In this document: positions 1-2,731 of the stretch, piece by piece
Position numbering within the stretch: position 1 is the stretch's first letter
Layout of the letters: each line of letters opens with the position of its first letter
NCBI RefSeq assembly: GCF_003334335.1
Contig: NZ_QOWQ01000015.1
DNA length: 64,000 nt
Reading direction: 5' to 3' (one strand)
Source of the DNA: Escherichia coli
Lineage (GTDB): Bacteria; Pseudomonadota; Gammaproteobacteria; Enterobacterales; Enterobacteriaceae
The notes under the pieces: model-generated
The model's database searches: none
What the model saw: the letters and a program-made list of their open reading frames with translations, nothing else
Told to the model about the DNA's origin: nothing
Made by a program: the position numbers and the translations under genes

Positions 1-848
1 AGAATGGCGGACCAGTCCTGGCGACCGCGACCCGCTGCGCGCGCCTGGCTATAAACCTCCCGTGAGGCGGCCCCCAGCGGCATTGGCACATGCAGCTGGT
101 TGGCGACATCAAGGGCGATGCCAAGATCCTTATGGGCAAGATCGATCATGAAGGCGGGAGAAAGATCTCCGCTGAGGACTTTGTTTGGCCAGGAAGTGGT
201 GAAGTGACCTTTACCGGCGGCGGTACCGCTCATCACTTTGACGGCAACATCGAAGGGAAGATTCAGGGCTTCGCACAAAACGGCGGCTTCTGCCGAAAGC
301 GCATTGAGCGCGATGCTCATGTAGTTGTTGATGAGCTTAACGCGGATCCCCATGCCCGGACCGCCAGCGTTGATCAACTCACTGCCCATCGCCATCAGGA
401 TCGGTGTGGCACGTTCAACTTGTTCAGCGGTGCCGCCAGCCAGCAGTAACAGAGTACCGGTAATGGCATTTGCAGAAGTACGGCCTACCGGAACATCCAT
501 CATGCTGAAGCCTTTGGCTTGCATATCGGCAATCAATTTATCGGTTTGCAGCGGATGGATGGTGGACATATCAATGACCAGCGCATCGGTAGATAAGCCT
601 TCGCAAACGCCGTTTTCACCGAACAACACGTTGCGCACCAGATCGCCATTCGGCAACATGGTAATGATAAATTCGGCATCTTTAGCGGCCTGCGCCGGGT
701 TGGCGGCGGGAGTCGCACCTTTGTCTACCAGATGCCGCACAGCTTCGGCGTTCACATCAAAGACGCGAAGTTGATGCCCTTGCTGCAATAAATTGCTCGC
801 CATTGGCGAACCCATTTGTCCTAAACCGATAAACGCGATTGCTGCCAT
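1..848 (-). CDS. yihU: 3-sulfolactaldehyde reductase (NAD-dependent); 3' end runs off the window start
   Basis: Minus-strand reading frame starting at ATG (plus-strand CAT at 846-848) with AGGAG-like RBS upstream; N-terminus [17 protein letters not shown] is a Rossmann GxGxxG motif; absent from ORF track because no stop lies inside the window. Confidence 0.85.
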
Positions 849-1015
849 AACCCTCTCCTGAATACAGTGATGTCACTTTTTGTCATTTATGACATGCTTT
901 GCTTGTCTGTTTTTGATCGTATTTGTAATTTATCGTCAAAAAATTGACAGCCGTCACTTTTTAAACAATTGGTGAAATTAAAATGAACGCATCCCAAAAT
1001 GTTTAAGGAATGACC

Positions 1016-1912
1016 ATGATTCGTGTTGCTTGTGTAGGTATAACCGTGATGGATCGCATCTATTACGTGGAAGGGTTACCGACGGAGAGCGGTAAATACG
1101 TGGCGAGAAATTATACGGAAGTTGGTGGCGGGCCAGCGGCGACGGCAGCGGTTGCGGCGGCAAGGCTGGGGGCGCAGGTCGATTTTATTGGTCGCGTAGG
1201 TGATGACGACACGGGCAACAGCCTGCTGGCAGAGCTGGAATCCTGGGGCGTTAACACCCGTTACACCAAACGGTATAACCAGGCGAAATCTTCGCAATCC
1301 GCCATCATGGTGGATACCAAAGGCGAGCGGATAATCATTAACTACCCCAGCCCGGATCTGCTGCCTGACGCAGAGTGGTTGGAGGAAATTGATTTCTCTC
1401 AGTGGGATGTTGTGCTGGCAGATGTACGCTGGCACGACGGCGCTAAAAAAGCCTTCACCCTGGCCCGTCAGGCGGGTGTGATGACCGTTCTGGACGGGGA
1501 CATTACGCCGCAGGATATCAGTGAGCTGGTGGCATTAAGCGATCACGCGGCCTTTTCAGAACCGGGTCTGGCGCGCTTAACGGGCGTGAAAGAGATGGCC
1601 AGTGCGCTAAAACAGGCACAAACGCTCACAAATGGTCATGTCTATGTGACCCAGGGTAGCGCAGGCTGCGACTGGCTGGAAAATGGTGGGCGTCAGCATC
1701 AACCGGCCTTCAAAGTTGATGTGGTAGATACCACAGGTGCGGGTGATGTTTTTCACGGCGCTTTGGCGGTGGCGCTGGCAACAAGTGGGGATTTAGCGGA
1801 GTCAGTCCGCTTCGCCAGCGGTGTAGCGGCGTTAAAATGCACACGTCCCGGTGGACGAGCCGGGATCCCTGACTGTGATCAAACCCGATCTTTTTTGTCA
1901 CTTTTTGTATAA
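1016..1912 (+). CDS. yihV: 6-deoxy-6-sulfofructose kinase (PfkB/ribokinase family)
   Basis: ORF track 1010..1912; protein MIRVACVGITVMDRIYY... recognised; PfkB-type GAGD motif (DTTGAGDVFHGA) near C-terminus; start taken at second in-frame ATG. Confidence 0.92.
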   Translation: MIRVACVGITVMDRIYYVEGLPTESGKYVARNYTEVGGGPAATAAVAAARLGAQVDFIGRVGDDDTGNSLLAELESWGVNTRYTKRYNQAKSSQSAIMVDTKGERIIINYPSPDLLPDAEWLEEIDFSQWDVVLADVRWHDGAKKAFTLARQAGVMTVLDGDITPQDISELVALSDHAAFSEPGLARLTGVKEMASALKQAQTLTNGHVYVTQGSAGCDWLENGGRQHQPAFKVDVVDTTGAGDVFHGALAVALATSGDLAESVRFASGVAALKCTRPGGRAGIPDCDQTRSFLSLFV

Positions 1913-1945
1913 AATGCCAGGGTGATGGTTTTTCGAGGAATTTTC

Positions 1946-2731
1946 ATGAGCCTTACCGAACTAACCGGTAACCCGCGGCACGACCAACTCCTCATGCTGA
2001 TCGCCGAGCGTGGGTATATGAATATTGATGAGCTGGCAAATCTGCTGGATGTCTCCACGCAGACGGTCCGCCGGGATATTCGTAAATTAAGCGAGCAAGG
2101 CCTGATTACGCGCCATCACGGTGGCGCGGGTCGGGCTTCCAGCGTCGTTAATACGGCGTTCGAGCAGCGTGAGGTTTCGCAAACCGAGGAAAAAAAAGCG
2201 ATTGCCGAAGCGGTGGCAGACTATATTCCTGATGGTTCAACAATATTTATCACCATTGGTACGACTGTTGAGCATGTTGCCCGGGCGTTACTTAACCATA
2301 ATCATTTGCGGATAATCACCAACAGCCTGCGTGTGGCGCATATTCTTTACCACAACCCGCGCTTTGAAGTGATGGTGCCCGGCGGTACGTTGCGCTCTCA
2401 TAATAGCGGGATCATTGGCCCTTCAGCGGCGTCCTTTGTGGCTGATTTTCGTGCTGATTATCTGGTAACAAGCGTTGGGGCGATTGAGAGCGATGGCGCG
2501 TTGATGGAGTTTGATGTAAACGAAGCTAACGTGGTGAAAACGATGATGGCGCACGCGAGAAATATTCTGCTGGTCGCCGATCACACTAAGTATCATGCTT
2601 CGGCGGCGGTTGAAATTGGTAACGTGGCACAGGTCACTGCGCTCTTTACCGACGAGCTGCCGCCCGCTGCGCTAAAATCACGCTTACAAGACAGCCAAAT
2701 TGAAATCATTCTTCCCCAGGAAGACGCGTAG
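1946..2731 (+). CDS. csqR: DeoR-family transcriptional repressor of the sulfoquinovose operon
   Basis: ORF track 1922..2731; N-terminal HTH (IDELANLLDVSTQTVRRDIRKL) plus DeoR C-terminal sugar-phosphate binding domain; start at internal ATG giving 261 aa. Confidence 0.9.
   Translation: MSLTELTGNPRHDQLLMLIAERGYMNIDELANLLDVSTQTVRRDIRKLSEQGLITRHHGGAGRASSVVNTAFEQREVSQTEEKKAIAEAVADYIPDGSTIFITIGTTVEHVARALLNHNHLRIITNSLRVAHILYHNPRFEVMVPGGTLRSHNSGIIGPSAASFVADFRADYLVTSVGAIESDGALMEFDVNEANVVKTMMAHARNILLVADHTKYHASAAVEIGNVAQVTALFTDELPPAALKSRLQDSQIEIILPQEDA

Follow-up and report, generated by a model that had tools for sequence, protein, structure and literature searches.

The closest described system to the locus analysed here is the sulfo-EMP (sulfoquinovose) cluster of Escherichia coli K-12 (Denger 2014; Shimada 2019; Sharma 2021), which degrades sulfoquinovose, a sulfosugar of plants. 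The two have the same genes in the same order, the same spacer and the same regulator, and we find no material difference between them, the DNA being essentially identical. The regulator, CsqR, can be set beside GlpR, AgaR, DeoR and UlaR, which are DeoR-family sugar repressors that act as cooperative oligomers on several operators. Like them, CsqR has HTH_DeoR and DeoRC domains, is autoregulated and is released by a sugar effector, and it appears to use repeated short boxes over divergent promoters. Unlike theirs, its putative box (TGTCA-type with a T-run) is system-specific and its effector is a sulfonated sugar; in addition, the PDB holds no relative of CsqR at E <= 1e-10, which leaves it and its close relatives without a solved structure. 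Also related is the 'short' yih cassette known from E. coli Nissle 1917 and from B2 strains (Kaznadzey et al. 2025), which occupies the same slot beside yihX. Its regulator, kinase, reductase and aldolase are 67–72% identical to those of the long cassette and the operator core is conserved, but it is inverted and replaces the entire yihL-to-csqR stretch.

Published work already covers the genes and the pathway, the repressor with its effectors, and the binding of CsqR to the spacer, as well as two crystal structures, and the finding is an ordinary one with little discovery value. What this analysis adds is the coordinates of candidate boxes, their conservation and their placement relative to the promoters. 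Our reading, which we hold with high confidence, is that the DNA carries the known edge of the sulfo-EMP cluster, with CsqR boxes lying over divergent promoters and repression that is released by sulfoquinovose.

The right-hand end of the sulfoquinovose cluster

The window, a stretch of 64,000 nucleotides, comes from an E. coli chromosome, and within positions 1–3500 its sole difference from K-12 MG1655 is G versus T at 869. When window 1–2900 was used as a megablast query against 5,426 complete E. coli genomes, 5,424 of them were matched, many at 100% identity. On the matched DNA RefSeq names yihU, yihV, csqR (a DeoR/GlpR regulator) and yihX (glucose-1-phosphatase), and its annotation of identical E. 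coli DNA has the same genes with a spacer that is also 167 bp. The genes and the spacer are as follows.

848 to 1, minus strand: yihU, sulfolactaldehyde 3-reductase (NF012005, PDB 6SM7, RefSeq on identical DNA)
849 to 1015, no strand: yihU–yihV divergent control region, 33.5% G+C (published CsqR target by gSELEX, EMSA and AFM)
1016 to 1912, plus strand: yihV, sulfofructose kinase, 298 aa (PDB 7AG6, alignment, RefSeq)
1946 to 2731, plus strand: csqR (yihW), DeoR/GlpR-family repressor, 261 aa (Pfam, NCBIfam, conserved ATG and GAGGA)

The window edge cuts yihU at its 3' end, so that the first 282 of its 298 codons are present (ATG at 846–848). Its product scores 580 bits against the NCBIfam equivalog for sulfolactaldehyde 3-reductase, NF012005 (cut-off 348), and matches PDB 6SM7 over residues 1–282 with E 2e-182. 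The yihV product aligns with the sulfofructose kinase of PDB 7AG6, residues 1–298 on 1–298, with E 7e-200, and every score that it obtains against ribokinase and other kinase equivalogs in NCBIfam is under the respective cut-off. The sequences of both solved structures agree end to end with the window proteins. In E. coli-type sulfo-EMP clusters the YihU reductase is NADH-dependent and the YihV kinase has a PfkB/ribokinase fold. CsqR has an HTH_DeoR domain (Pfam PF08220, residues 11–66, 4e-23) followed by a DeoRC domain (PF00455, residues 79–237, 2e-49); its NCBIfam matches are GlpR-like and none reaches the equivalog cut-off, the best being 256.6 bits against a 331-bit cut-off. A short form of the protein starts at the Met25 codon, window 2018–2020 (PMC10991401). 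A sequence-only reading of this DNA had named the same three genes and had placed yihU divergent from yihV-csqR; NF012005, the two structures, Pfam and RefSeq bear out the identities, no alignment contradicts the enzyme assignments, and the coordinates and strands hold.

Conserved AAGGA (1005–1009) and GAGGA (1935–1939) stand before the annotated starts of yihV and csqR, respectively. An ATG at 1010 for yihV and a GTG at 1922 for csqR were considered as starts and rejected; neither is conserved in other species, and the upstream regions have indels whose lengths are not multiples of three.

Leftward of yihU, a strain with the same sequence across the query has yihT, yihS, yihR, yihQ, yihP, yihO and ompL, and the full long cassette is present both in strains 100% identical over 1–2900 and in MG1655. 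Thus yihT (aldolase), yihS (isomerase), yihR, yihQ (sulfoquinovosidase), yihO/P and ompL are linked to the window genes but lie outside the window. To the right, the next gene is yihX (glucose-1-phosphatase), which is outside the ompL-yihOPQRSTU / yihV-csqR cluster. Since yihT to ompL all lie leftward, yihU, yihV and csqR close the E. coli sulfo-EMP cluster on the right, where they make up its final 2.7 kb, in agreement with their earlier description as terminal genes of the sulfoquinovose locus. An Rfam scan of 1–3500 gave no credible structured-RNA match, and no unexpected elements were found at the locus.

The yih cluster and CsqR have also been connected with lactose: yihT, yihS and yihV are induced on lactose with YihW-dependent promoter switching (Kaznadzey et al. 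2018), and the RefSeq label for MG1655 CsqR is 'dual regulator'. We consider a lactose-linked role very improbable, since the solved YihU and YihV structures have sulfonate-specific pockets and high sulfosugar selectivity (PMC8006165), the effector demonstrated to dissociate CsqR from DNA is sulfoquinovose, and lactose enters as a CsqR ligand through docking only. Growth on sulfoquinovose and induction by it are described in the literature (PMC8006165, PMC12608037).

Repeats and candidate boxes in the two control regions

The yihU–yihV spacer is exactly 167 bp long and is A+T-rich (33.5% G+C against 52.0% for the window), both of which had been stated from the sequence, together with the expectation that it contains CsqR operators. 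Published genomic SELEX, gel shifts, atomic force microscopy and ChIP-exo all put CsqR there. Genomic SELEX with CsqR gave one strong peak, in this spacer (PMC8249747). Gel shifts and AFM with a yihU/V probe indicated highly cooperative, polymer-like binding that is reversed by sulfoquinovose and, more weakly, by sulforhamnose (PMC8006165), and a 2025 study repeated binding and release for both yihU/V and yihV/W fragments (PMC12608037).

A repeat search of 849–1015 found direct and inverted repeats, above chance: a three-copy family at 871–882, 904–915 and 952–963, and an imperfect palindrome around 934–949. The 13-mer TGTCACTTTTTGT has exactly two copies in the 64 kb, at 871–883 and at 1896–1908, the second in the final yihV codons just upstream of csqR. 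The 10-mer GTCACTTTTT has exactly three (872, 953 and 1897) where 128,000/4^10 = 0.12 would be expected, and all of them fall in the two published CsqR target regions. Similarly, the four copies of TGTCNNTTTT are all in the spacer or in the region upstream of csqR. GTCA/TGAC is found 7 times in the spacer, where the window-wide rate predicts 1.28 (Poisson P = 4e-4); mononucleotide shuffles give an expectation of 1.04, and 0 of 20,000 of them reach 7.

These repeats could in principle be functionless chance similarities, given that the spacer is only 33.5% G+C, T-runs are common in DNA of this kind, and short two-copy families often arise by chance. That idea is effectively refuted by the confinement of the 13-mer and the 10-mer to known CsqR targets, by the persistence of the GTCA enrichment after composition-matched shuffling, and by the conservation of the boxes, which is at least 90% in 52 species compared with 49% at synonymous sites. 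The other intergenic regions of the long cassette (yihQ/R, yihR/S, ompL/yihO and the remaining spacers) have no comparable box, which agrees with the single gSELEX peak. The repeats can be fitted to a 10-bp register (871/881; 904/914/924; 1886/1896/1906), but lag autocorrelation for 10-bp tandem repeats is not significant (z = 1.2–1.8 at lags 9–10, and 1.2 at lag 10), so we offer such a repeat as a possible register only. DNase I footprints of CsqR were reportedly obtained by Shimada et al. in 2019, and other papers that cite the study give no box sequence.

The candidate elements are listed here.

871 to 890, plus strand: Box A, two TGTCA-type repeats 10 bp apart (TGTCACTTTT / TGTCATTTAT), proposed CsqR operator
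904 to 933, plus strand: core block TGTCTGTTTTTGATCGTATTTGTAATTTAT (conservation, ChIP-exo mapping, NU14 cassette)
934 to 949, no strand: imperfect palindrome CGTCA-N6-TGACA with two putative inverted GTCA half-sites, conserved
952 to 962, plus strand: Box C, CGTCACTTTTT, proposed CsqR operator at about −38 to −28 of the yihV promoter
979 to 984, plus strand: TAAAAT, likely the yihV −10 hexamer, invariant across species and assigned from the published start
1866 to 1916, plus strand: csqR promoter/operator block in the yihV 3' end (third-codon identity, alignment, published start)

The first repeat of Box A is an exact copy of the 13-mer upstream of csqR. The block at 1866–1916, a second operator-bearing region to which the sequence-only reading had made no reference, contains an invariant TGTGA (1874–1878), Box D (TGTCACTTTTTGT, 1896–1908) and TATAAA/TAAAAT (1908–1915).

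Conservation, transcription starts and in vivo binding

A scan of one genome per species gave 59 enterobacterial loci with a close YihV relative (Escherichia, Salmonella, Citrobacter, Klebsiella, Enterobacter, Yersinia, Rahnella, Hafnia and others), and in nearly all of them yihU is divergent from yihV-csqR. We aligned 52 orthologous spacers, from 52 Enterobacterales species, with that of the window. Positions 904–984 have a mean identity to the window base of 92.5%, with 58 of 81 columns at least 95% invariant, compared with 48.7% identity at yihV third codon positions in the same genomes. Within this footprint the conserved elements are the nearly invariant core block at 904–933, GTCAAAAAATTGACA (935–949), GTCACTTTTTAAACA (953–967) and AATTAAAAT (976–984). 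Outside it, the TGTCA at 871 is at least 90% conserved across the 52 species and the one at 881 less strongly. In the last 50 nt of yihV third-position identity rises to 81%, versus 47% in the rest of the gene, and a conserved block, CCTGACTGTGATCAAAC...TGTCACTTTTTGTATAAAATG (1866–1916), is present; together these indicate a regulatory element embedded in the yihV coding sequence.

Published transcription starts (Kaznadzey et al. 2018) were placed on the window. The yihV start, at −25/−27, falls at 989–991, so TAAAAT at 979–984 would be the −10 hexamer and the box at 952–962 would lie over the −35 region. The csqR start (−27/−28) falls at 1918–1919, and Box D spans the csqR promoter spacer and the edge of TATAAA (1908–1913). 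The yihU starts (−15 to −92) fall at 863–940, inside or upstream of the boxes at 871–890 and 904–933; Box A is over the proximal ones and downstream of the distal ones. Two RNA polymerase complexes form on the spacer (Kaznadzey et al. 2018). The spacer has no 9-of-12 match to the sigma-70 consensus and one weak 8-of-12 match, and the promoter assignments therefore rest on the published starts; such a lack of consensus is consistent with weak, regulated promoters. When both control regions were scanned for the CRP consensus TGTGA-N6-TCACA, the best matches had 3–4 mismatches of 10, and upstream of csqR the invariant TGTGA at 1874–1878 corresponds to a half-site; CRP binding has been reported experimentally (Kaznadzey et al. 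2018).

In the ChIP-exo data of Gao et al. 2021, YihW has a peak with a signal/noise of 168 at NC_000913.2 4071641–4071681, for which the nearest gene is yihV (PMC8464067). The conversion of these coordinates was anchored on NC_000913.3 at the yihV start (4073739) and purA (4404687), and an offset of 1977 between the assemblies fits both the purA peak and PlatProm 4071737 (yihV start −25/−27). With this offset the YihW peak maps to window ~895–935, on the invariant 904–933 core and midway between the exact 10-mers. This peak, the strongest that YihW shows in vivo genome-wide, falls on the 904–984 block. The interval covers the core and not the GTCACTTTTT copies at 872 and 953, and the core may be the true recognition element.

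An alternative explanation of the conservation is that 904–984 is kept mainly as divergent promoter architecture (−35/−10 elements and UP-like A/T tracts) together with sites for other proteins such as cAMP-CRP, in which case the GTCACTTTTT copies would be promoter-associated elements and CsqR would recognise something else in the spacer. Several yihU starts and the yihV start do lie inside the block, and the spacer carries the two polymerase complexes; two of the three exact 10-mers (953 and 1897) adjoin a TAAAAT-type −10, and no single operator is as long as the conserved stretch. We nevertheless think this explanation rather unlikely as the main one. The sigma-70 matches are no better than 8 of 12, no CRP match has fewer than 3 mismatches of 10, the top YihW signal of the genome sits on this very block, an identical box is found at the autoregulated csqR promoter, and the core is retained, between diverged flanks, in a cassette whose regulator has identical residues across the DNA-binding segment (below). 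Even so, 81 nearly invariant base pairs are more than operators alone need, and the stretch must also serve promoter elements and further factors, CRP for example.

We therefore favour CsqR operators as part of this footprint, and the boxes at 871–890, 904–933, 934–949, 952–962 and 1896–1908 would, from their placement, overlap the regulated promoters, that of csqR itself included. Transcription of yihU, the first gene of the yihUTS operon, runs leftward, and that of yihV and csqR rightward; csqR has a promoter of its own within the final ~50 nt of yihV. Under this model CsqR, a DeoR-family winged-helix repressor, would assemble as a cooperative oligomer on GTCA-containing boxes spread over the spacer and on the identical box upstream of csqR. 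Since the boxes appear to overlap the yihV −35 region, the csqR promoter spacer and −10 edge, and the yihU starts, bound CsqR would be expected to occlude RNA polymerase. Sulfoquinovose binds the C-terminal sensor domain and releases CsqR, and sulfoquinovosyl glycerol and sulforhamnose do so more weakly. This analysis shows which genes are present, how far the repeats exceed chance, how conserved the control regions are and where the published ChIP-exo and start data fall on the boxes; binding, cooperativity and the effector response come from the literature; the bases of the TGTCA-type half-sites and the geometry of occlusion are what we infer.

The features that could enter an operator model are the 13-mer common to both targets, the 30-bp invariant core, and TGTCA half-sites that occur as direct as well as inverted copies. 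The recognition code of CsqR may not yet be base-resolved, in which case these features could serve as a new operator model for a DeoR-family repressor that polymerises; we think this unlikely. The footprint and box coordinates may nonetheless aid the design of operator mutants or sulfoquinovose-responsive reporters.

A divergent cassette in the same slot

About 1,400 of the 5,424 matching E. coli genomes match window 1–2900 only from 2763 onward, so that a divergent cassette replaces the long one in ~26% of E. coli genomes. This gives one further feature.

2762 to 2763, no strand: right-hand boundary of the variable yih cassette (match breakpoint in ~1,400 of 5,424 genomes)

In one such strain, NU14, an inverted, divergent cassette occupies the slot between typA and yihX. 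It has genes for a DeoR regulator, a kinase, a YihU-like reductase, an aldolase, a Zn-dependent alcohol dehydrogenase, two MFS transporters and an epimerase. Identity to the K-12 proteins is 72% for the regulator, 67% for the kinase, 72% for the reductase and 67% for the aldolase, whereas the MFS transporters are unrelated to YihO/YihP at E <= 1e-3 and the epimerase is 27% identical to YihR. The DNA-binding segment, aligned at positions 32–61, has no residue that differs between the NU14 regulator and CsqR. The divergent spacer of this cassette keeps the core GTCTGTTTTTGAnCnTATTTGTAATTTATG / CGTCTGTTTTTGAGCATATTTGTAATTTATG, and upstream of its regulator gene the box TGTCACTTTaTG / TGTCACTTTATGCGTAAAAT is kept. 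If true, an operator core common to both cassette types would imply one shared repressor specificity. Earlier work has reported the cassette as well as binding of each regulator to the other's spacer (PMC12608037). The sharp 2762/2763 boundary is of use in describing how this locus varies between E. coli strains.

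A csqR promoter and operator inside yihV

The last ~50 nucleotides of yihV (window 1863-1916) are under strong constraint at synonymous sites; third-position identity across orthologues from 52 Enterobacterales species is 81% there and 47% elsewhere. This stretch of coding sequence harbours the promoter and operator of csqR. A mechanical list of open reading frames began yihV at ATG 1010 and csqR at GTG 1922, and we rejected both of these starts since neither is conserved across species; the annotated starts, 1016 for yihV and 1946 for csqR, are supported.

Variation in the yihU-yihV spacer

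Over window 1-3500 the only difference from K-12 MG1655 is at position 869 (G in the window, T in MG1655), two bases upstream of box A, the proposed CsqR operator that begins at 871. In other genera the spacer is longer, 290 bp in Hafnia paralvei and 196 bp in Buttiauxella (two loci, L044 and L056), and in both the added length comes from insertions downstream of the yihV -10 region and ahead of the ribosome-binding site, which leave the spacer's conserved core unbroken.

A replacement cassette ending at 2762/2763

Of 5,424 complete E. coli genomes, roughly 1,400 (about 26%) align with the window only from 2763 on; the right-hand boundary of the variable cassette lies at 2762/2763. Strain NU14 carries, in place of the entire yihL-to-csqR stretch, an inverted cassette of eight genes:

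L065 (NU14 locus) 370-8927, inverted: DeoR regulator, kinase, reductase, aldolase, Zn-ADH, two MFS transporters, epimerase

The literature calls the replacement the "short yihTUVW cassette"; however, the NU14 version has four genes beyond the yihTUVW counterparts, none of the four closely related to yihO, yihP or yihR. Among the 5,424 matching places, two fall in records labelled plasmid rather than chromosome.

Box-like sequences elsewhere

Near the 5' end of fdhD (window 13321-13331, minus strand) lies a copy of the box with one mismatch, TGTCACATTTT. No CsqR binding has been reported at this copy, and it probably occurs by chance. The yihR/yihS spacer, outside the window (L001 9655-9791), has no CsqR-type box; it contains a G-rich repeated stretch, GGGGAGAGGGTTAGGGAGAGGGG, that is similar to a REP-type extragenic element.
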